From the NCBI GenBank assembly GCA_000004985.1, contig GG738984.1: a stretch of 14,026 nt of DNA. One strand, written 5' to 3'. Source of the DNA: Naegleria gruberi (taxonomy: Eukaryota). Below are positions 1,976 to 14,026 of this stretch, one piece after another (within the stretch, counting starts at the first letter, position 1; every line of letters begins with the position of its first letter). The translations under genes were made by a program, and so were the position numbers. The notes below the pieces were generated by a model. The model was not told where the DNA came from, did no database searches, and saw only the letters and a program-made list of their open reading frames with translations.

Positions 1976-4900
1976 NNNNNNNNNNNNNNNNNNNNNNNNN
2001 NNNNNNNNNNNNNNNNNNNNNNNNNNNNNNNNNNNNNNNNNNNNNNNNNNNNNNNNNNNNNNNNNNNNNNNNNNNNNNNNNNNNNNNNNNNNNNNNNNNN
2101 NNNNNNNNNNNNNNNNNNNNNNNNNNNNNNNNNNNNNNNNNNNNNNNNNNNNNNNNNNNNNNNNNNNNNNNNNNNNNNNNNNNNNNNNNNNNNNNNNNNN
2201 NNNNNNNNNNNNNNNNNNNNNNNNNNNNNNNNNNNNNNNNNNNNNNNNNNNNNNNNNNNNNNNNNNNNNNNNNNNNNNNNNNNNNNNNNNNNNNNNNNNN
2301 NNNNNNNNNNNNNNNNNNNNNNNNNNNNNNNNNNNNNNNNNNNNNNNNNNNNNNNNNNNNNNNNNNNNNNNNNNNNNNNNNNNNNNNNNNNNNNNNNNNN
2401 NNNNNNNNNNNNNNNNNNNNNNNNNNNNNNNNNNNNNNNNNNNNNNNNNNNNNNNNNNNNNNNNNNNNNNNNNNNNNNNNNNNNNNNNNNNNNNNNNNNN
2501 NNNNNNNNNNNNNNNNNNNNNNNNNNNNNNNNNNNNNNNNNNNNNNNNNNNNNNNNNNNNNNNNNNNNNNNNNNNNNNNNNNNNNNNNNNNNNNNNNNNN
2601 NNNNNNNNNNNNNNNNNNNNNNNNNNNNNNNNNNNNNNNNNNNNNNNNNNNNNNNNNNNNNNNNNNNNNNNNNNNNNNNNNNNNNNNNNNNNNNNNNNNN
2701 NNNNNNNNNNNNNNNNNNNNNNNNNNNNNNNNNNNNNNNNNNNNNNNNNNNNNNNNNNNNNNNNNNNNNNNNNNNNNNNNNNNNNNNNNNNNNNNNNNNN
2801 NNNNNNNNNNNNNNNNNNNNNNNNNNNNNNNNNNNNNNNNNNNNNNNNNNNNNNNNNNNNNNNNNNNNNNNNNNNNNNNNNNNNNNNNNNNNNNNNNNNN
2901 NNNNNNNNNNNNNNNNNNNNNNNNNNNNNNNNNNNNNNNNNNNNNNNNNNNNNNNNNNNNNNNNNNNNNNNNNNNNNNNNNNNNNNNNNNNNNNNNNNNN
3001 NNNNNNNNNNNNNNNNNNNNNNNNNNNNNNNNNNNNNNNNNNNNNNNNNNNNNNNNNNNNNNNNNNNNNNNNNNNNNNNNNNNNNNNNNNNNNNNNNNNN
3101 NNNNNNNNNNNNNNNNNNNNNNNNNNNNNNNNNNNNNNNNNNNNNNNNNNNNNNNNNNNNNNNNNNNNNNNNNNNNNNNNNNNNNNNNNNNNNNNNNNNN
3201 NNNNNNNNNNNNNNNNNNNNNNNNNNNNNNNNNNNNNNNNNNNNNNNNNNNNNNNNNNNNNNNNNNNNNNNNNNNNNNNNNNNNNNNNNNNNNNNNNNNN
3301 NNNNNNNNNNNNNNNNNNNNNNNNNNNNNNNNNNNNNNNNNNNNNNNNNNNNNNNNNNNNNNNNNNNNNNNNNNNNNNNNNNNNNNNNNNNNNNNNNNNN
3401 NNNNNNNNNNNNNNNNNNNNNNNNNNNNNNNNNNNNNNNNNNNNNNNNNNNNNNNNNNNNNNNNNNNNNNNNNNNNNNNNNNNNNNNNNNNNNNNNNNNN
3501 NNNNNNNNNNNNNNNNNNNNNNNNNNNNNNNNNNNNNNNNNNNNNNNNNNNNNNNNNNNNNNNNNNNNNNNNNNNNNNNNNNNNNNNNNNNNNNNNNNNN
3601 NNNNNNNNNNNNNNNNNNNNNNNNNNNNNNNNNNNNNNNNNNNNNNNNNNNNNNNNNNNNNNNNNNNNNNNNNNNNNNNNNNNNNNNNNNNNNNNNNNNN
3701 NNNNNNNNNNNNNNNNNNNNNNNNNNNNNNNNNNNNNNNNNNNNNNNNNNNNNNNNNNNNNNNNNNNNNNNNNNNNNNNNNNNNNNNNNNNNNNNNNNNN
3801 NNNNNNNNNNNNNNNNNNNNNNNNNNNNNNNNNNNNNNNNNNNNNNNNNNNNNNNNNNNNNNNNNNNNNNNNNNNNNNNNNNNNNNNNNNNNNNNNNNNN
3901 NNNNNNNNNNNNNNNNNNNNNNNNNNNNNNNNNNNNNNNNNNNNNNNNNNNNNNNNNNNNNNNNNNNNNNNNNNNNNNNNNNNNNNNNNNNNNNNNNNNN
4001 NNNNNNNNNNNNNNNNNNNNNNNNNNNNNNNNNNNNNNNNNNNNNNNNNNNNNNNNNNNNNNNNNNNNNNNNNNNNNNNNNNNNNNNNNNNNNNNNNNNN
4101 NNNNNNNNNNNNNNNNNNNNNNNNNNNNNNNNNNNNNNNNNNNNNNNNNNNNNNNNNNNNNNNNNNNNNNNNNNNNNNNNNNNNNNNNNNNNNNNNNNNN
4201 NNNNNNNNNNNNNNNNNNNNNNNNNNNNNNNNNNNNNNNNNNNNNNNNNNNNNNNNNNNNNNNNNNNNNNNNNNNNNNNNNNNNNNNNNNNNNNNNNNNN
4301 NNNNNNNNNNNNNNNNNNNNNNNNNNNNNNNNNNNNNNNNNNNNNNNNNNNNNNNNNNNNNNNNNNNNNNNNNNNNNNNNNNNNNNNNNNNNNNNNNNNN
4401 NNNNNNNNNNNNNNNNNNNNNNNNNNNNNNNNNNNNNNNNNNNNNNNNNNNNNNNNNNNNNNNNNNNNNNNNNNNNNNNNNNNNNNNNNNNNNNNNNNNN
4501 NNNNNNNNNNNNNNNNNNNNNNNNNNNNNNNNNNNNNNNNNNNNNNNNNNNNNNNNNNNNNNNNNNNNNNNNNNNNNNNNNNNNNNNNNNNNNNNNNNNN
4601 NNNNNNNNNNNNNNNNNNNNNNNNNNNNNNNNNNNNNNNNNNNNNNNNNNNNNNNNNNNNNNNNNNNNNNNNNNNNNNNNNNNNNNNNNNNNNNNNNNNN
4701 NNNNNNNNNNNNNNNNNNNNNNNNNNNNNNNNNNNNNNNNNNNNNNNNNNNNNNNNNNNNNNNNNNNNNNNNNNNNNNNNNNNNNNNNNNNNNNNNNNNN
4801 NNNNNNNNNNNNNNNNNNNNNNNNNNNNNNNNNNNNNNNNNNNNNNNNNNNNNNNNNNNNNNNNNNNNNNNNNNNNNNNNNNNNNNNNNNNNNNNNNNNN

Positions 4901-6426
4901 NNNNNNNNNNNNNNNNNNNNNNNNNNNNNNNNNNNNNNNNNNNNNNNNNNNNNNNNNNNNNNNNNNNNNNNNNNNNNNNNNNNNNNNNNNNNNNNNNNNN
5001 NNNNNNNNNNNNNNNNNNNNNNNNNNNNNNNNNNNNNNNNNNNNNNNNNNNNNNNNNNNNNNNNNNNNNNNNNNNNNNNNNNNNNNNNNNNNNNNNNNNN
5101 NNNNNNNNNNNNNNNNNNNNNNNNNNNNNNNNNNNNNNNNNNNNNNNNNNNNNNNNNNNNNNNNNNNNNNNNNNNNNNNNNNNNNNNNNNNNNNNNNNNN
5201 NNNNNNNNNNNNNNNNNNNNNNNNNNNNNNNNNNNNNNNNNNNNNNNNNNNNNNNNNNNNNNNNNNNNNNNNNNNNNNNNNNNNNNNNNNNNNNNNNNNN
5301 NNNNNNNNNNNNNNNNNNNNNNNNNNNNNNNNNNNNNNNNNNNNNNNNNNNNNNNNNNNNNNNNNNNNNNNNNNNNNNNNNNNNNNNNNNNNNNNNNNNN
5401 NNNNNNNNNNNNNNNNNNNNNNNNNNNNNNNNNNNNNNNNNNNNNNNNNNNNNNNNNNNNNNNNNNNNNNNNNNNNNNNNNNNNNNNNNNNNNNNNNNNN
5501 NNNNNNNNNNNNNNNNNNNNNNNNNNNNNNNNNNNNNNNNNNNNNNNNNNNNNNNNNNNNNNNNNNNNNNNNNNNNNNNNNNNNNNNNNNNNNNNNNNNN
5601 NNNNNNNNNNNNNNNNNNNNNNNNNNNNNNNNNNNNNNNNNNNNNNNNNNNNNNNNNNNNNNNNNNNNNNNNNNNNNNNNNNNNNNNNNNNNNNNNNNNN
5701 NNNNNNNNNNNNNNNNNNNNNNNNNNNNNNNNNNNNNNNNNNNNNNNNNNNNNNNNNNNNNNNNNNNNNNNNNNNNNNNNNNNNNNNNNNNNNNNNNNNN
5801 NNNNNNNNNNNNNNNNNNNNNNNNNNNNNNNNNNNNNNNNNNNNNNNNNNNNNNNNNNNNNNNNNNNNNNNNNNNNNNNNNNNNNNNNNNNNNNNNNNNN
5901 NNNNNNNNNNNNNNNNNNNNNNNNNNNNNNNNNNNNNNNNNNNNNNNNNNNNNNNNNNNNNNNNNNNNNNNNNNNNNNNNNNNNNNNNNNNNNNNNNNNN
6001 NNNNNNNNNNNNNNNNNNNNNNNNNNNNNNNNNNNNNNNNNNNNNNNNNNNNNNNNNNNNNNNNNNNNNNNNNNNNNNNNNNNNNNNNNNNNNNNNNNNN
6101 NNNNNNNNNNNNNNNNNNNNNNNNNNNNNNNNNNNNNNNNNNNNNNNNNNNNNNNNNNNNNNNNNNNNNNNNNNNNNNNNNNNNNNNNNNNNNNNNNNNN
6201 NNNNNNNNNNNNNNNNNNNNNNNNNNNNNNNNNNNNNNNNNNNNNNNNNNNNNNNNNNNNNNNNNNNNNNNNNNNNNNNNNNNNNNNNNNNNNNNNNNNN
6301 NNNNNNNNNNNNNNNNNNNNNNNNNNNNNNNNNNNNNNNNNNNNNNNNNNNNNNNNNNNNNNNNNNNNNNNNNNNNNNNNNNNNNNNNNNNNNNNNNNNN
6401 NNNNNNNNNNNNNNNNNNNNNNNNNN
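1976..6426. other. Assembly gap (4451 N)
   Basis: A run of N. Track ORFs 1879-6438, 1894-6441, 1934-6430 and 1940-6523 are open only because N translates to X. Confidence 1.
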
Positions 6427-6429
6427 GTG

Positions 6430-6523
6430 AAGTACTAGCAATAGAGATTGAATCCTCTTCTATGGCAATATTGTTGTTGTTAGTATTATTCAATTGATTT
6501 ATGCTAGCATTGGGATGCAACAT
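6430..6523 (-). CDS. Candidate first coding segment, possibly the N-terminus of the same cyclase gene, continuing into the gap: MLHPNASINQLNNTNNNNIAIEEDSISIASTS..
   Basis: ATG on the minus strand at 6521-6523 is preceded by AAAAAAAC, an A-rich start context typical of AT-rich amoebae. Poly-N low complexity follows. It has the same orientation as the cyclase, and the frame is open to the gap edge. Linkage across the gap cannot be shown from this sequence. Confidence 0.35.
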
Positions 6524-6992
6524 GTTTTTTTGTAGTTGTTTTGTTGTAGACTTTCGTTTGGAATGAATCTAAGAATTATTTTCTAATCCATTGTTTGAAA
6601 CTTTCTGATTTAAACTTGATAGAGAATTTGGATATAAATAGAAATATTAAGCAGTGTACCGTTAGAATTTAAAATACAATAATGAGCTAGATGTGTTTTC
6701 AGGTAATGCACATATACAGATTACGTAATTCTTGAAGAAGTATTAAATAACTTCATTTAACTTCATTTAGCTAGAATGCTAGCACCATACAATTATACAT
6801 CAGATTGATTCATTATGAAAACATGTCTGTGTCCATCAAACAGTTACATCAAAAAGCAATTAACGGACCATTAGAAATAAATAAATTCTAATTTATCATC
6901 AATTTTCAATATTTGGAAATTTAAATTCCATTTAAATACAGTTCCCTGTTTGCATTCCGTGCTTGTAATATAATAATAATTAGTATCATCAT

Positions 6993-7010
6993 TAGTGATA
7001 ATTATCACTA
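6993..7010. repeat. Perfect 18-bp palindrome TAGTGATAATTATCACTA
   Basis: Read directly from the sequence. Its reverse complement is identical. It lies in the intergenic region about 470 bp upstream of the candidate cyclase start, next to the partial inverted element tatcatcattagtgata. Confidence 0.9.
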
Positions 7011-7029
7011 CATATTCGAAAAATCAGCT

Positions 7030-7200
7030 GCCAAGTACGATTTTTTGGTTTTTTTTACGTTATTCCCGCTAAACCCTTTTCGCAAATGCTGGCTTGACTT
7101 TTAACGATTTTTTGTTAATGGATTTTTGCGATGTGAGCGAAATGTAGAATTGCCCAAGCTCGACTTGTAAATTTTTTCGAAACTATTTGAAATTTCACCA
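7030..7200. other. Non-coding segment with an atypical CpG-containing composition. It has internal direct repeats: CGATTTTTTG twice, GCTTGACTT and GCTCGACTTG, and CCAAG twice.
   Basis: Nine or more CG dinucleotides occur in about 170 nt, although CG is otherwise rare here. The motifs acgattttttgg (7038-7049) and acgattttttgtt (7104-7116) repeat. Several T6-8 runs are flanked by CG. No ORF is present. Confidence 0.4.
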
Positions 7201-7223
7201 AGTCTTGAAATTAATAAAGTCTA

Positions 7224-7555
7224 TATTAAATGTATTGATTGTTGTAATGAACTGGAATAGGCCTGTTTGGAAGGGTCAAGAATAACACACGGAACCTTTT
7301 TCCTTGATATCTCAATGATACGTTTCGGATCTTCAATAGCAAGCTGTATTGAATAAAAGTCATTAGAAAAGGACTCAACCTGACAAACCTTCTTGGTTTT
7401 TGTATCAAAGCATCTCGTTTCTTACTCACTACATAGTTGCCAGCAATACATTGTCCTGAGTTTAAGGGTTCATTCAGATCAAGAAGATCACATAATTGAC
7501 ACCTATCATAATACGTAATGGATTCTATTGAACTTGTTCTGCAGGTGTTAAAGGA
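7224..7555 (-). CDS. Possible 3'-terminal two-exon fragment of an unknown minus-strand gene: exon 7430-7555 (..CRTSSIESITYYDRCQLCDLLDLNEPLNSGQCIAGNYV), intron 7344-7429 (GTGAGT..CAG, 86 nt), exon 7224-7343 (LAIEDPKRIIEISRKKVPCVILDPSKQAYSSSLQQSIHLI), with TAG at 7221-7223.
   Basis: Two open frames of about 40 codons each are phase-compatible across a canonical GTGAGT donor and a CAG acceptor. The intron is of typical size, and the exons are richer in GC than the surrounding DNA. No family was recognised. The 5' part would lie in gap 2. Confidence 0.3.
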
Positions 7556-7673
7556 TTAGCAAGATTTGTTTCCGTAAAGAAGGCAACTCCAAATTTTCTG
7601 TGAACTAGTTATATGCTGTTGATTGTACGGCCCTTAGCAATGAATTCTGCCTTTTTGGAGAAGGTCTCATTTT

Positions 7674-9481
7674 NNNNNNNNNNNNNNNNNNNNNNNNNNN
7701 NNNNNNNNNNNNNNNNNNNNNNNNNNNNNNNNNNNNNNNNNNNNNNNNNNNNNNNNNNNNNNNNNNNNNNNNNNNNNNNNNNNNNNNNNNNNNNNNNNNN
7801 NNNNNNNNNNNNNNNNNNNNNNNNNNNNNNNNNNNNNNNNNNNNNNNNNNNNNNNNNNNNNNNNNNNNNNNNNNNNNNNNNNNNNNNNNNNNNNNNNNNN
7901 NNNNNNNNNNNNNNNNNNNNNNNNNNNNNNNNNNNNNNNNNNNNNNNNNNNNNNNNNNNNNNNNNNNNNNNNNNNNNNNNNNNNNNNNNNNNNNNNNNNN
8001 NNNNNNNNNNNNNNNNNNNNNNNNNNNNNNNNNNNNNNNNNNNNNNNNNNNNNNNNNNNNNNNNNNNNNNNNNNNNNNNNNNNNNNNNNNNNNNNNNNNN
8101 NNNNNNNNNNNNNNNNNNNNNNNNNNNNNNNNNNNNNNNNNNNNNNNNNNNNNNNNNNNNNNNNNNNNNNNNNNNNNNNNNNNNNNNNNNNNNNNNNNNN
8201 NNNNNNNNNNNNNNNNNNNNNNNNNNNNNNNNNNNNNNNNNNNNNNNNNNNNNNNNNNNNNNNNNNNNNNNNNNNNNNNNNNNNNNNNNNNNNNNNNNNN
8301 NNNNNNNNNNNNNNNNNNNNNNNNNNNNNNNNNNNNNNNNNNNNNNNNNNNNNNNNNNNNNNNNNNNNNNNNNNNNNNNNNNNNNNNNNNNNNNNNNNNN
8401 NNNNNNNNNNNNNNNNNNNNNNNNNNNNNNNNNNNNNNNNNNNNNNNNNNNNNNNNNNNNNNNNNNNNNNNNNNNNNNNNNNNNNNNNNNNNNNNNNNNN
8501 NNNNNNNNNNNNNNNNNNNNNNNNNNNNNNNNNNNNNNNNNNNNNNNNNNNNNNNNNNNNNNNNNNNNNNNNNNNNNNNNNNNNNNNNNNNNNNNNNNNN
8601 NNNNNNNNNNNNNNNNNNNNNNNNNNNNNNNNNNNNNNNNNNNNNNNNNNNNNNNNNNNNNNNNNNNNNNNNNNNNNNNNNNNNNNNNNNNNNNNNNNNN
8701 NNNNNNNNNNNNNNNNNNNNNNNNNNNNNNNNNNNNNNNNNNNNNNNNNNNNNNNNNNNNNNNNNNNNNNNNNNNNNNNNNNNNNNNNNNNNNNNNNNNN
8801 NNNNNNNNNNNNNNNNNNNNNNNNNNNNNNNNNNNNNNNNNNNNNNNNNNNNNNNNNNNNNNNNNNNNNNNNNNNNNNNNNNNNNNNNNNNNNNNNNNNN
8901 NNNNNNNNNNNNNNNNNNNNNNNNNNNNNNNNNNNNNNNNNNNNNNNNNNNNNNNNNNNNNNNNNNNNNNNNNNNNNNNNNNNNNNNNNNNNNNNNNNNN
9001 NNNNNNNNNNNNNNNNNNNNNNNNNNNNNNNNNNNNNNNNNNNNNNNNNNNNNNNNNNNNNNNNNNNNNNNNNNNNNNNNNNNNNNNNNNNNNNNNNNNN
9101 NNNNNNNNNNNNNNNNNNNNNNNNNNNNNNNNNNNNNNNNNNNNNNNNNNNNNNNNNNNNNNNNNNNNNNNNNNNNNNNNNNNNNNNNNNNNNNNNNNNN
9201 NNNNNNNNNNNNNNNNNNNNNNNNNNNNNNNNNNNNNNNNNNNNNNNNNNNNNNNNNNNNNNNNNNNNNNNNNNNNNNNNNNNNNNNNNNNNNNNNNNNN
9301 NNNNNNNNNNNNNNNNNNNNNNNNNNNNNNNNNNNNNNNNNNNNNNNNNNNNNNNNNNNNNNNNNNNNNNNNNNNNNNNNNNNNNNNNNNNNNNNNNNNN
9401 NNNNNNNNNNNNNNNNNNNNNNNNNNNNNNNNNNNNNNNNNNNNNNNNNNNNNNNNNNNNNNNNNNNNNNNNNNNNNNNNN
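7674..9481. other. Assembly gap (1808 N)
   Basis: A run of N. Track ORFs 7605-9494, 7613-9556 and 7667-9562 are artefacts. Confidence 1.
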
Positions 9482-9590
9482 TTGTATGATGCAAAAGTTT
9501 ACATCAAGAAATTGTTGAAAATCTACCTTCTTTTTTGTCTGATCCCTTTCTGGTAGTGTCATTAATTAATATGCTTGGTTGTTCAATCAG

Positions 9591-10553
9591 TCCCAGGCAG
9601 TATTGGATGTTTTTGGTGGGTACAATGGACAAGATGTGGCCGTGTTAAATGTTACATTGTCAGCTCTTTACAAGGATGGTTTAATTCATAATGCTCTCAA
9701 TCTATTCTATGAAAATACGAAAAATTACAAGTTTGATGAAAAAACATTTACAATTATTTTAACAATGTGCAAAGACATGCAAAACGACGATAGTGTAAAG
9801 GGTCAACAATATTTTGAAATGATGAAACAATATGAAGTTGAACCAAATATCTTCCATTATACATGTCTTATCAAGTGTTTTCTCTCAGAAAAGCAATTTG
9901 AAAGGGCTCTGGATATTCTCTTTGATATTCATTTGACAGGAATTCTAATTGATGATGCTTGCTTTAACTCTTCCGGGGGGTCTCTTTAAATCATGATCAT
10001 TATGAAAATTACAATGGAATTGCATCAAATAATCATCACGATGAAGGAAACTTTTCATTCTTCTTTTATTGATTTCTGTGCCCAGTACAGTATGAGAGAA
10101 TTGGCTGGTAGAGTTCACATATAATGAAAGATTTTGGACATAAACCAAATATACAACTCTTCAATATGCTAAATATGTACTTGAATGTTGGAAATTTTGA
10201 AAAAGCTCTAGAACTGTATAAAGAATTAAGAAATCAAGCCAATATTATCACTTGCAACATTCTCATATCTGGATTAACTTTGAATGGGCAGGGTAAAGAA
10301 GCTATTAGGATATTCAAAGAAATGAATATAGCCCCTAATGGCACCACATTTGCTGCAGTGTTGAATGCATGTAGTCATTGTGGATTAATTAAGGAAGGAT
10401 TTCAAATCTATGAAAGTATGCAAACAAATCATGGTATTGAACCAGATGGTCGGACTTTTAATGTTTGACAACCAACCTACATTAAAAGTTATTGTAACCT
10501 TACAAAAAAACTATTATTGGAGAGATGGTGAACTTTGCTATTGTGGTAATTTC
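9591..10553 (+). pseudogene. PLS-class pentatricopeptide repeat (PPR) gene ending in a DYW-like C-terminal block. The reading frame is broken three times, so it is a candidate pseudogene unless the breaks are sequence errors. Its 5' end lies in gap 2.
   Basis: Segment A, 9591-9986 (frame 0), carries P/L-type repeats and ends at a TAA (9987-9989) where the S-motif needs a hydrophobic residue. Segment B, 10014-10121 (same frame), reads MELHQIIITMKETFHSSFIDFCAQYSMRELAGRVHI and ends at TAA 10122-10124. Segment C, 10124-10465 (frame +2), matches the plant S2/E1 consensus almost exactly: ..NIITCNILISGLTLNGQGKEAIRIFKEMNIAPNGTTFAAVLNACSHCGLIKEGFQIYESMQTNHGIEPDGRTF. After another frame change, 10470-10553 reads TLKVIVTLQKNYYWRDGELCYCGNF. 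This aligns with the DYW-domain terminus [25 protein letters not shown]. There is no in-frame ATG. A possible acceptor is caatcag|TCC at 9588-9591. Confidence 0.5.
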
Positions 10554-10643
10554 CCGCACTTTCTATTTTCATTTTTCAACAACAAAAAAAACAAATCAAA
10601 CAATTATTTAAATAATAATCTAAAACAATTGATAAGAAAGAAA

Positions 10644-11016
10644 ATGTGTACTAATAATAATAATAATAATACTCTCACTGGTAAATTAATCATGAGAAAG
10701 AACAAGGAAGAAAGTATTGAAAAGGTTTTCCAATTAATTAATTTCGGAGGCTTGAATGAATCTGTTAGAGAATTTGTTCAAGATTTGTCATCTGCTACTT
10801 CTTCTGATGAAGTGTTATTATCCACTTTCAAGATCAAGGCTATTGTTCCATCTTCTGAGAAGAGAAAAACAATTTATATAATTAATAATGAAAATGATTT
10901 TTCTGAAATGATGAAATTAATTCAAGAAATTCCACAAGATAAACCAATTCTTTTCAGAGTAATGAAGAAGAAATTGAATCATGAAAAGAAGGAAAGAAAG
11001 GAAAAGAAAGAAAGAA
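10644..11016 (+). CDS. Hypothetical protein, N-terminal part, running into gap 3: (MCTNNNNNNTLTGKLI)MRKNKEESIEKVFQLINFGGLNESVREFVQDLSSATSSDEVLLSTFKIKAIVPSSEKRKTIYIINNENDFSEMMKLIQEIPQDKPILFRVMKKKLNHEKKERKEKKER..
   Basis: The frame is open for more than 200 codons (10410-11016) in AT-rich DNA. In-frame ATGs sit at 10644 (aaaATG context) and 10692. Coding triplet texture is present and there is no stop before the gap. The frame is also open upstream into the PPR DYW-like block, so this could be a C-terminal extension of the PPR gene rather than a separate gene. No family was recognised. Confidence 0.4.
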
Positions 11017-12059
11017 NNNNNNNNNNNNNNNNNNNNNNNNNNNNNNNNNNNNNNNNNNNNNNNNNNNNNNNNNNNNNNNNNNNNNNNNNNNNNNNNNNNN
11101 NNNNNNNNNNNNNNNNNNNNNNNNNNNNNNNNNNNNNNNNNNNNNNNNNNNNNNNNNNNNNNNNNNNNNNNNNNNNNNNNNNNNNNNNNNNNNNNNNNNN
11201 NNNNNNNNNNNNNNNNNNNNNNNNNNNNNNNNNNNNNNNNNNNNNNNNNNNNNNNNNNNNNNNNNNNNNNNNNNNNNNNNNNNNNNNNNNNNNNNNNNNN
11301 NNNNNNNNNNNNNNNNNNNNNNNNNNNNNNNNNNNNNNNNNNNNNNNNNNNNNNNNNNNNNNNNNNNNNNNNNNNNNNNNNNNNNNNNNNNNNNNNNNNN
11401 NNNNNNNNNNNNNNNNNNNNNNNNNNNNNNNNNNNNNNNNNNNNNNNNNNNNNNNNNNNNNNNNNNNNNNNNNNNNNNNNNNNNNNNNNNNNNNNNNNNN
11501 NNNNNNNNNNNNNNNNNNNNNNNNNNNNNNNNNNNNNNNNNNNNNNNNNNNNNNNNNNNNNNNNNNNNNNNNNNNNNNNNNNNNNNNNNNNNNNNNNNNN
11601 NNNNNNNNNNNNNNNNNNNNNNNNNNNNNNNNNNNNNNNNNNNNNNNNNNNNNNNNNNNNNNNNNNNNNNNNNNNNNNNNNNNNNNNNNNNNNNNNNNNN
11701 NNNNNNNNNNNNNNNNNNNNNNNNNNNNNNNNNNNNNNNNNNNNNNNNNNNNNNNNNNNNNNNNNNNNNNNNNNNNNNNNNNNNNNNNNNNNNNNNNNNN
11801 NNNNNNNNNNNNNNNNNNNNNNNNNNNNNNNNNNNNNNNNNNNNNNNNNNNNNNNNNNNNNNNNNNNNNNNNNNNNNNNNNNNNNNNNNNNNNNNNNNNN
11901 NNNNNNNNNNNNNNNNNNNNNNNNNNNNNNNNNNNNNNNNNNNNNNNNNNNNNNNNNNNNNNNNNNNNNNNNNNNNNNNNNNNNNNNNNNNNNNNNNNNN
12001 NNNNNNNNNNNNNNNNNNNNNNNNNNNNNNNNNNNNNNNNNNNNNNNNNNNNNNNNNNN
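11017..12059. other. Assembly gap (1043 N), immediately preceded by a GAA/GAAA purine microsatellite (10975-11016)
   Basis: A run of N. Track ORFs 10410-12125, 10917-12113 and 10981-12096 are joined across the N run and are artefacts. Confidence 1.
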
Positions 12060-12096
12060 TGTAGCAGGTTTTCTATTTATTGTGGGACTATTGTAA
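12060..12096 (+). CDS. C-terminal fragment (..VAGFLFIVGLL, then stop) of a plus-strand gene emerging from gap 3. The hydrophobic tail suggests a C-terminal membrane anchor.
   Basis: Only 11 codons are visible before the TAA at 12094-12096, all hydrophobic and consistent with the end of a transmembrane segment. Linkage to the ORF before the gap is unproven. Very short. Confidence 0.25.
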
Positions 12097-12192
12097 ATAT
12101 GACAATGGACCAAAGGTTAGTTTAAAGAAAGAAAACAAAGGTAAAGAAAAAGGAGTGAATACATTTATATTTCACACTTTAAGTAATCGAAT

Positions 12193-12312
12193 GGCTACGG
12201 CCATATCACGATGAATGCACCTCATCCCGTCCGATTTGAGAAGTTAAGCATCGTAGAGCCACATCAGTACTGAGGTTGGAGACAACTTGGGAACCTGTGG
12301 TGCTGTAGTCTT
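12193..12312 (+). rRNA. 5S ribosomal RNA gene
   Basis: GGCUACGGCCAUAUCACGAUGAAUGCACCUCAUCCCGUCCGAUUUGAGAAGUUAAGCAUCGUAGAGCC...GUACUGAGGUUGGAGACAACUUGGGAACCUGUGGUGCUGUAGUC matches universal 5S blocks (GGCCAUA.., CCCGUCCGAU, GAAGUUAAGC, GUACU, GGGAA, GGUGCUGUA). The 5' GGCUACGGC pairs with the 3' GCUGUAGUC to form a 9-bp helix I with two G-U pairs. Length is about 120 nt. An oligo-T follows immediately. Confidence 0.9.
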
Positions 12313-12316
12313 TTTT
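12311..12316 (+). terminator. Pol III oligo-T terminator (TTTTTT) for the 5S gene
   Basis: A T6 run lies directly after the helix I 3' strand. Confidence 0.6.
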
Positions 12317-12630
12317 GTTAACAACAGAATTAAATGTATTAAATGTAAGTTATCATATTCCTTCCGTTGGTGTTAAGTCTTGTCTTTTCACTCCTTAATT
12401 GCATATTTATTTTGTAATGCGATCACAATGATGATGCAAGCAACAACGTCACCAAAAACAATCTCCGAGAAATCAACAAGCCAGAAATTTCATCACTAAA
12501 ATTTTAGCTAGAAAAAATTACTTGTCACCAAAACAAAAGAAAAATCAAGCAAACTTGTTCACTCCAAGAAGAAGATCAAAGGCTAGCGATTTTGAAAGTG
12601 TAAATAAAGAGAACCAATAATAACAATAAC

Positions 12631-13561
12631 ATGAGAAAAAGAGAAGCATTGATGGACGAGTTTTCCGATCCATCACCAAAGAAATTATTGGATGATGATG
12701 ACGAGGAAACTTCTGATTTTATTGAACATAAGAAATCGACCAAGAAGAAGAGTAGTAGCAAGACAAAGAATCAACATAATAGAACATTCTCATCATCGAG
12801 TACGGGGAGTACAGGGAGTGGTGGTGGCGGAAATGTAACTTTTGGATATGGAAAAAAGCAACAACACACAAGAACACAATCATCAACATCGAGTACAGGT
12901 TCTCCTGTTGGAGGAGGTTATCAATCATCGGGTATATATGATGGTGATTCCTCTCCTGTTGTTACATCAGATAATTATGATAATAATCGATTGAATTACT
13001 CTGCATCGAATAGTAATATTGATAAATACAAGGGAATAAGTTCAAGAGATATGGGAAAGGTTAATAGTATGCCATCAATTTCGGAATCATATGAAAATTC
13101 ATCATCATCATCATACTCTAATGATCCACGTATTGGTACCATGAAGAATAATTATTATGAACAGGCAAGAAAGAGACAAAACGAAGAGAGTGGTCCATAC
13201 ATTTTGCAAGTTATTGCCGATATGTTAAAGTATATTTATTCATCAATTACAGAAACTGCCAATATTGGAGGATCTAGATTGACAAGTGCCGTCTCGGGAA
13301 TGAATTTCAGACAGAATCAATCCAATGCAAATCCAAGAGCAGGAGGTGATTTCCCATCTCCAGAGATTTATTTAGAACCTGAAAAGAAGCAAATTTTGGA
13401 ACAATTCAAAAAGTATTGCTCTAAAAAGTTCGACATTGAGAATGACAAACATCAAAAACTGTTATTCTCACTCTACAAGTGTTGTACTCAGAAGAAGACT
13501 ATTTTAACTGAGGGAGAACATTGGAAATTCTTGGGATTCCAAAACACAAAACCAGAAACTG
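12631..13561 (+). CDS. ELMO-domain protein, exon 1. The N-terminal about 230 aa are S/G/N/T-rich low complexity; the start of the ELMO domain follows (..EHWKFLGFQNTKPET).
   Basis: ATG at 12631 is the first in-frame ATG after a TAA at 12601-12603, in an aacATG context. The frame is open to 13561 and the exon ends in a GTAAGT donor. The apparent stop of track ORF 12631-13569 (TAA at 13567-13569) is part of that donor. Confidence 0.85.
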
Positions 13562-13653
13562 GTAAGTAATCACTATTGTTTTATTAATAATGTTTCATAA
13601 CTTTACTTGTTCAATTTCATCAATAATTGGATCGGAATAATTATTAATAACAG
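13562..13653 (+). other. Intron (92 nt, GTAAGT..AACAG, phase 1) splitting the ELMO-domain T-D-F-R-G motif
   Basis: Exon 1 ends ..ACT G. After the acceptor CAG (13651-13653), exon 2 starts AC TTT AGA GGA GCA GGT. The spliced read is ..KPETDFRGAGILGLRNLLYF, matching the ELMO consensus W..LGFQ...P.TDFRG.G.LGL..L.YF. Confidence 0.85.
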
Positions 13654-14026
13654 ACTTTAGAGGAGCAGGTATTCTTGGGTTGAGAAATTTACTCTACTTC
13701 TCCAAACATTACAAGAAGAGATTCAAGAATTACTTTGGAAAATGTACAAATGAGATTTCTGTCACTGATGATGGTACTTTCACAAGTTATCCATTTGTTA
13801 TTGCTGGGTTGAATGTGACAATGTTGCTCTTGTCCTTCCTAGGTATTGGATTCCAAGCATCTAAGGTACATAATGTGACGGCCAAGAAGAATTTCATTGA
13901 ACTTTTAACATCCGAAAGAGGAAAACCAGTTCTTGAAGAGGATGAAGACGAAGAGGAGGATGAAGATTCTACACCTGTAGTTACAGAAGGAACACTGCTT
14001 TCCTTTGATGACATTCCAGAACAAAA
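13654..14026 (+). CDS. ELMO-domain protein, exon 2 (partial, continues past the window end): DFRGAGILGLRNLLYFSKHYKKRFKNYFGKCTNEISVTDDGTFTSYPFVIAGLNVTMLLLSFLGIGFQASKVHNVTAKKNFIELLTSERGKPVLEEDEDEEEDEDSTPVVTEGTLLSFDDIPEQ
   Basis: No stop codon from 13654 to 14026 in the spliced frame. Carries ELMO-domain hallmarks. The antisense track ORF 13787-14014 is rejected. Confidence 0.85.

Follow-up and report, generated by a model that had tools for sequence, protein, structure and literature searches.

Does the locus with plant-like pentatricopeptide repeats (PPRs) on contig GG738984.1 of Naegleria gruberi (assembly GCA_000004985.1) encode a working RNA-editing factor, or is it what remains of one? An earlier note, made from the sequence alone, had described positions 9591–10553 of a 14,026-nt stretch of this contig (the whole stretch is referred to as the window) as a PLS-class PPR gene with a DYW-domain terminus, apparently decaying. 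Our analysis favors decay. With a probability of about 0.7, the segment 9482–10553 represents the 3′ part of a pseudogene, a decayed paralogue of the Naegleria DYW-type PLS-class PPR genes. Among known relatives, N. gruberi NAEGRDRAFT_76525 (XP_002668558.1) comes closest in sequence. The term relic, already used in the earlier note, is upheld as the best reading because several disabling lesions lie beyond removal by splicing, and the deaminase core is absent.

Approximately nine tandem PPR motifs in a PLS-type architecture are encoded at 9482–10468. The reading path was rebuilt from a three-frame display and from motif periodicity, and the segmentation into P, L, and S variants was manual. 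The frame-corrected reading of 349 amino acids (aa) matches the Pfam model PPR_2 in six stretches (E=8.2e-27, 93.5 bits against a Pfam cutoff of 30) as well as PPR (77 bits, cutoff 25) and PPR_3 (56 bits), placing tandem repeats of ~31–37 aa above the Pfam gathering thresholds of PF01535 and PF13041. Matches are also obtained from single uncorrected open reading frames (ORFs), namely 10112–10465 (PPR_2, E=2.6e-20, 72.7 bits; PPR, E=6.6e-18) and 9579–9989 (PPR_2, E=6.3e-10; PPR, 4.5e-06; PPR_3, 2.1e-05). Our segmentation reads L(partial)-S(~30)-P(34)-L(37)-P/S(35)-L(35)-S(30)-S(31)-P2(32)-L2(36). Motif lengths range from 30 to 37 aa, L-type (G..LH..I) and S-type (LI.MY...G....A..VF) patterns are recognizable, and under this manual assignment the mixed P, L, and S variants close in P2-L2, as in the PLS class and unlike a uniform series of 35-aa P motifs.

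All motifs lie on the plus strand. The first, a partial L-type motif visible in the three-frame display (..LYDAK / SLHQEIVENLPSFLSDPF, 9482–9549), stands at the edge of the readable sequence, and the array probably continues 5′ into the run of N at 7674–9481. An array is indeed present where the earlier note let it begin, at 9591, but its readable part starts at 9482. The partial L-type motif is followed by an S-type motif split by a frameshift (LVVSLINMLG then FNQSQAVLDVFGGYNGQDV, 9550–9638), within which tblastn matches start at 9579 in frame +3. Three motifs then share one frame (9639–9956: P-like, 34 aa; L-like, 37 aa; P/S-like, 35 aa) and are supported by Pfam and tblastn, for which Naegleria, Willaertia, and plant PLS proteins served as queries. 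Next comes an L-type motif of 35 codons (ACFNSSGGSL, a stop, then IMIIMKITMELHQIIITMKETFHS; 9957–10061) that contains an in-frame TAA at 9987–9989. A second frameshift splits the following S-type motif (SFIDFCAQYSMRELAGRVHI then MKDFGHKPNI, 10062–10153), where tblastn homology passes from frame +3 to frame +2. The best-kept part comprises an S motif (31 aa), P2 (32 aa), and L2 (36 aa) at 10154–10450, recovered by Pfam, tblastn, and our own hidden Markov model (HMM). The block NIITCNILISG...HGIEPDG lies here as had been quoted (10244–10450, plus strand) and is a strong PPR match (PPR_2, E=2.6e-20). Its designation as an S2/E1 motif has to be corrected to P2 plus L2, because in the alignment it precedes S2 of the Naegleria, Willaertia, and plant proteins; the last two motifs of the array align with P2-L2 of the DYW proteins from these groups.

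The earlier assignment to a PLS-class PPR lineage that carries DYW domains is borne out by the PPR_2 match of the corrected reading (E=8.2e-27) and by the likeness to XP_002668558.1 (37 of 44 residues), which together argue that the locus belongs to this lineage. When the reconstruction was compared with 5.8 billion proteins, only three matches were obtained: two plant PPR proteins with E motifs and an N. gruberi DYW protein. XP_002668558.1 (EFC35814.1, NAEGRDRAFT_76525) is an N. gruberi "predicted protein" of 234 aa with PPR and DYW_deaminase domains, the latter scoring 90.7 bits in Pfam. Its residues 1–44 are 84% identical (37/44; tblastn E=1e-18) to the translation of 10322–10447. This identity covers the last part of P2 and the whole of L2, extends to non-consensus positions (FQIYESMQTNH.IEPD), and gives way to background immediately past IEPD (10447). 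Among 1.8 billion representatives, a profile search, which was in effect a search with an XP_002668558.1 profile from which window-only columns had been dropped, yielded nothing closer than XP_002668558.1. A metagenome scan with the P2-L2 query returned a single locus (contig Ga0209930_1003011, 241–387; 41% identity over 48 residues), which, as a distant PPR rather than an orthologue, is uninformative here.

Beyond IEPD the two copies part. XP_002668558.1 retains S2, E1, HCE, CGDCH, and a terminal CSCGEYW followed by a stop, whereas the window copy is devoid of the first four and has only a diverged, out-of-frame stub in place of the CSCGEYW end. Like the window copy, XP_002668558.1 is itself atypical, as in the alignment it lacks ~38 residues over E2 and the PG box. 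Additionally, it is missing nine residues (ASRFHHFKD) ahead of the terminal CSCGEYW, its gene model begins inside a PPR motif on a 10.5-kb scaffold, and the score of its E motif does not reach the Pfam cutoff. XP_002668558.1 could be a mis-modelled or eroding gene.

The loss of the C-terminal region was followed with an HMM built from P2 to DYW (240 positions, 59 sequences). It matches the locus at positions 4–65 only (E=2e-7), and positions 66–240, which correspond to S2 through DYW, find no match in any of the six frames. The Pfam models for the E motifs (PF20431, PF20430) and for DYW (PF14432) gave zero matches at E<=10, so that of the PPR, E, and DYW profiles proposed as a check, the first score and the other two fail. 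A regular-expression scan of the six frames of the readable window detected no CxxCH, no H[SAC]E[KR]xA (HxEKLA), and no PGxSW; the absence of HxE and CxxCH noted earlier therefore stands. Consequently, neither the S2 and E1/E2 motifs of the E/E+ subgroups, expected after L2, nor the PG box, HxE, and CxxCH of the DYW core are found in the readable sequence. The extent of the loss had been put at about 140 codons; compared with XP_002668558.1, ~175 residues are gone, and the comparison with intact N. gruberi DYW proteins gives ~213 aligned columns. What follows L2 is a junction of 34 nt (10451–10484, plus strand) that could not be assigned, holds a TGA (10466–10468), and matches no part of S2, E, or DYW. 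Alignments of two tblastn queries (P0071, P0078) reach 10489–10495 through this TGA, as would a further PPR motif past L2; that candidate was dropped because its score is no better than that of shuffled sequences (P=0.63).

Further lesions lie inside the array, whose frame path runs f1 to f0 to f2. The first firm frameshift, at 9580–9581, leaves two orphan bases between frames, which would fit the loss of one base. The second, at 10118–10123 (CACATATAATG), reads HI in either frame and fits a TA duplication or a 1-nt loss. Independently of the motif reconstruction, tblastn homology lies in frame +3 at 9579–9971 and in frame +2 from 10118 onward. Across the TAA at 9987–9989 the 35-aa motif register continues unbroken, with F in position 3 and LH in positions 22–23, which marks a nonsense codon rather than a frameshift. 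The TGA at 10466–10468 closes the frame of L2. Of the three frame breaks previously listed, two thus are frameshifts and the third, at 9987, is this in-frame stop; an additional lesion possibly lies upstream of the segment then described, near 9497, either as a –1 frameshift or instead as an in-frame TGA at 9487–9489, a reading based on five upstream residues. With two or three frameshifts plus TAA 9987 and TGA 10466, the locus has no continuous ORF of the kind a working editing factor needs, and the longest stop-free stretch within the array is 139 codons.

Could introns account for these breaks? Each of them falls inside a PPR motif whose 30–37-aa register is full without extra sequence. Both recognizable introns of the neighboring genes use GTAWGT donors, and not a single GTAWGT occurs in 9482–10600. 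Rescue by splicing is therefore very unlikely, and introns were ruled out as the explanation of the breaks in the array.

The same lesions bear on a further alternative, in which the truncated PLS protein is still expressed as a DYW-less specificity factor that recruits a DYW deaminase in trans or serves another RNA-binding role. Precedents exist: truncated CRR21 genes are under purifying selection in plants without the editing site (PMC3441922), and plant E-type PPRs rely on trans deaminases, as reviewed in bioRxiv 10.64898/2026.09.04.749523. The P2-L2 segment of the window copy is also well kept. Translation of the array, in contrast, would demand two to three frame changes and read-through of a TAA; the E1/E2 motifs that plant E-type factors require are absent; and no intron signals able to rescue the frame are present. 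We regard a functional factor of this type as very improbable. For the same reason, that is, frameshifts and stops inside the PPR array, the "divergent non-catalytic derivative" offered earlier as an alternative to a relic is disfavored.

If the gene has decayed, a remnant of its end may persist downstream of the junction. The tail VIVTLQKNYYWRDGELCYCGNF, previously aligned with the DYW C-terminus, is present at 10488–10553 in a frame other than that of the block, and we delimit the probable remnant (KVIVTLQKNYYWRDGELCYCGNF) to 10485–10553 on the plus strand, in a frame different from that of L2. It was evaluated on the 153 nt directly 3′ of the homology break against nine heterolobosean-type DYW C-termini from Naegleria, Willaertia, and three AT-rich relatives. 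The Smith–Waterman score of 41 was reached by none of 2,000 dinucleotide shuffles (maximum 40), nor by any of 5,000 in a single frame (maximum 35). Further, it exceeds the scores of 228 other segments of the window in three frames (maximum 39). MAFFT places YYWRDGELCYCGNF beneath HHFKDGK-CSCGDYW. The score rests mainly on RDG and CxCG and is not backed by a profile match.

Profile methods do not see this tail. Our tail HMM (59 sequences) scores KVIVTLQKNYYWRDGELCYCGNF at –0.5 bits and did not report it in the six-frame scan of the window, where chance matches elsewhere rank higher, and no Pfam DYW or E model matches the tail at E<=10. Compared with the expected ending (..IIVRDxxRFHHFxDGxCSCxDYW, then a stop), the terminal W is replaced and no stop codon follows. 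The resemblance could thus be due to chance, with the sequence past 10468 being intergenic or part of the 5′ untranslated region of the next gene and the E and DYW domains wholly lost or never present. In line with this, most of the score stems from two cysteines, a glycine, and DG; another genomic segment comes close (39 against 41); and with plant-type tails the segment scores 37.1, little different from a random antisense segment (36.6). Against chance stand the position of this best-scoring segment of the window, on the same strand and exactly at the expected end of the gene, 34 nt past the homology break and ~90 nt before the first ATG of the next gene, its score beyond the null maximum of 35 in 5,000 shuffles, and the DYW domain of the closest relative. 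We judge chance resemblance rather unlikely and the tail to be, quite probably, a diverged remnant of the DYW C-terminus. The homology claimed before thus has weak backing, from the Smith–Waterman score, the shuffles, and the segment comparison, and none from Pfam or our own HMM.

The quality of the underlying sequence is the remaining issue. Readable blocks of the window comprise 1–1975, 6427–7673, 9482–11016, and 12060–14026, the remainder being N. The N runs (1976–6426, 4,451 nt; 7674–9481, 1,808 nt; 11017–12059, 1,043 nt) make up 52% of the window, and the last of them begins within a GAA-rich, low-complexity coding stretch. They limit all statements on the 5′ part of the PPR gene and on sequence quality. 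The PPR locus occupies the third block, an island of 1,535 nt between N runs of 1,808 and 1,043 nt. An intact PLS(-DYW) gene might underlie it if the frameshifts and stops were base-calling errors in a low-coverage contig and the 0.5–0.65 kb loss a misassembly or collapsed join. The island-like position of block 9482–11016 and the distance of at most 15 nt between its edge and the first possible lesion agree with such an artefact. So does the absence of the ORFs of the window and of an adaptin fragment from annotated proteomes, as expected for a poorly assembled, unannotated scaffold.

Disruptions are nevertheless lacking from the other coding regions of the window, one of which runs for at least 108 codons farther downstream in the PPR block. 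Uninterrupted coding extends over 164 codons in the adaptin gene, 290 and 122 in a PAS-domain cyclase gene, and 321 and 128 in an ELMO-domain gene. Moreover, the lesions do not lie within long homopolymers. A misjoin into the same gene, in the same orientation and ~23 codons from its end, would be a coincidence, and base-calling errors leave the many substitutions of the tail relative to the DYW consensus and its lost stop unexplained. In a block this short, with N runs on either side, the small lesions may stem from sequencing error. Faulty base calling accounts neither for the large loss nor for the heavy substitution of the tail. As a whole, an artefact appears improbable.

Several points weigh against a decayed gene. 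The 1,535-nt block stands between two N runs, and if these are assembly gaps, few reads may lie behind the contig; in that case, wrong base calls could account for some of the small lesions and a misjoin for the junction. The lesions are known from the sequence of a single assembly, the boundaries of the deletion derive from protein alignment only, and the 5′ part with the start codon and targeting peptide is hidden in the N run 7674–9481. The tail is invisible to profile methods. It also matches XP_002668558.1 at only ~8 of 16 positions, compared with 37 of 44 in the adjacent L2, which is odd if both had drifted for an equal time.

With these reservations, the decayed gene may be pictured as follows. 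Judged by its family, the ancestor would have entered mitochondria as an imported protein and used its PLS array to bind a single transcript immediately 5′ of the target C, with one motif per nucleotide; its C-terminal zinc-dependent DYW cytidine deaminase would have converted this C to U. An internal loss of ~0.5–0.65 kb presumably took S2, E1, E2, the PG box, and both zinc-binding signatures, leaving a junction of ~34 nt and then, in another frame, a diverged stub of the last ~23 codons. The remaining array carries two or three frameshifts of 1–2 nt and a nonsense codon. No editing factor is then likely to be made from the locus. The likely cause would be that selection was relaxed, either because this member was redundant or because a genomic T had taken the place of its editing site.

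The surroundings of the locus are as follows. The window has a G+C content of ~32–35%. At its start, the C-terminal appendage of an alpha-adaptin is encoded on the plus strand (1–492; Pfam Alpha_adaptin_C, E=2.4e-21) and ends with a stop. This fragment gave zero matches at E<=1e-10 among the 5.8 billion proteins, and the exon lies outside every annotated protein of that collection. On the minus strand, a PAS-domain adenylate/guanylate cyclase is encoded by two exons (640–1005 and 1104–1973) separated by an intron with a GTATGT donor at 1112–1107; the gene extends into the following N run. In the PPR block, an open frame at 10644–11016 on the plus strand (MCTNNNNNN.. / MRKNKEESIEKVFQLINFGG..) has no Pfam match, continues into the N run, and presumably represents the next gene, starting ~90–140 nt past the PPR tail. 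Its frame is free of stops back to 10389 and is continuous with that of the DYW-like tail. A complete 5S rRNA gene (12193–12311, plus strand; Rfam RF00001, 106.5 bits, E=5e-23) is placed between the last N run and an ELMO/CED-12 domain gene, with a GTAAGT hexamer just 3′ of it at 12345. The ELMO/CED-12 gene itself (12604–13566 and 13641–14024, plus strand) has one intron with a GTAAGT donor at 13562, encodes a long Ser/Asn-rich N-terminal region, and extends beyond the end of the window. Repeats and tRNAs were looked for in the PPR block, where nothing relevant was found, and exact-product look-ups of the ORFs 10124–10465 and 12631–13566 returned no independent copies on record.

For annotation, the locus is one unannotated, degenerate addition to the DYW-type PPR family of Naegleria and its relatives; it should be labeled a pseudogene or fragment and not be counted as an editing factor. 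The Naegleria family was described by Knoop & Rudinger 2010, as cited in PMC4202320. According to that paper, which refers to Knoop & Rudinger 2010 and Rudinger et al. 2011, N. gruberi has 10–11 DYW-type PPRs for just two mitochondrial C-to-U sites that have been verified. With the family on record in this species since 2010 and 10–11 members for two such sites, one more copy in decay is to be expected; it is an ordinary pseudogene and not a discovery. Only this one degenerate, unannotated family member is new here, and the known distribution and mechanism of C-to-U editing are unaffected. The earlier argument from rarity outside plants is out of date, because DYW-type PPRs have since been reported in further lineages. 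They are also reported in rotifers, Acrasis, Laccaria, Physarum, Acanthamoeba, malawimonads (with members beyond those known before), and diplonemids (PMC4202320; bioRxiv 10.64898/2026.09.04.749523). The same two sources describe lineage-specific expansion and loss of the family, which the decayed copy fits, as in plants.

A bolder proposal, which we consider doubtful, is that the relic and NAEGRDRAFT_76525 form a young pair of paralogues caught at two stages of loss. If true, this would point to an ongoing birth-and-death turnover of the horizontally acquired Naegleria editing-factor family, possibly linked to one particular mitochondrial editing site having been lost recently. Less likely is a variant in which the array, though DYW-less, continues to be expressed and acts in trans as a specificity factor.

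How does the locus compare with known systems? The profile search of 1.8 billion representatives supplied intact DYW proteins from N. gruberi (XP_002682650.1, XP_002673292.1, XP_002674667.1) and Willaertia magna (KAL9655006.1, KAL9657062.1). These heterolobosean proteins share with the window copy a PLS-type array ending in P2-L2 (23–26% identity over 200–330 aa, E 1e-12 to 1e-19), and they are similarly rich in N, K, and I and encoded in similarly AT-rich genomes. They are, in contrast, ORFs of 660–860 aa with a complete E1-E2-DYW region ending in CSCG(D/G)(Y/N)W, whereas the window copy is disrupted and lacks ~213 aligned columns.

Land-plant PLS-E/DYW C-to-U editing factors follow the same motif grammar and, over the sequence as a whole, match best. 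With an E-type PPR of Platanthera, 94% of the query aligns at 24% identity (E=6e-24), and phmmer against the set retrieved with the DYW profile reaches 8e-87. Unlike the window copy, these proteins belong to another kingdom, possess an intact catalytic or E domain, and have demonstrated editing roles. In plants, too, editing-factor PPRs become pseudogenes or are C-terminally truncated once their editing site is lost (PMC3441922). CRR21 of Brassicaceae that lack the target site resembles the Naegleria copy in the loss of the C-terminal extension and/or pseudogenization of a PLS editing factor. The truncated CRR21 ORF, however, is intact and under purifying selection (PMC3441922), whereas in the window copy the array itself is broken.

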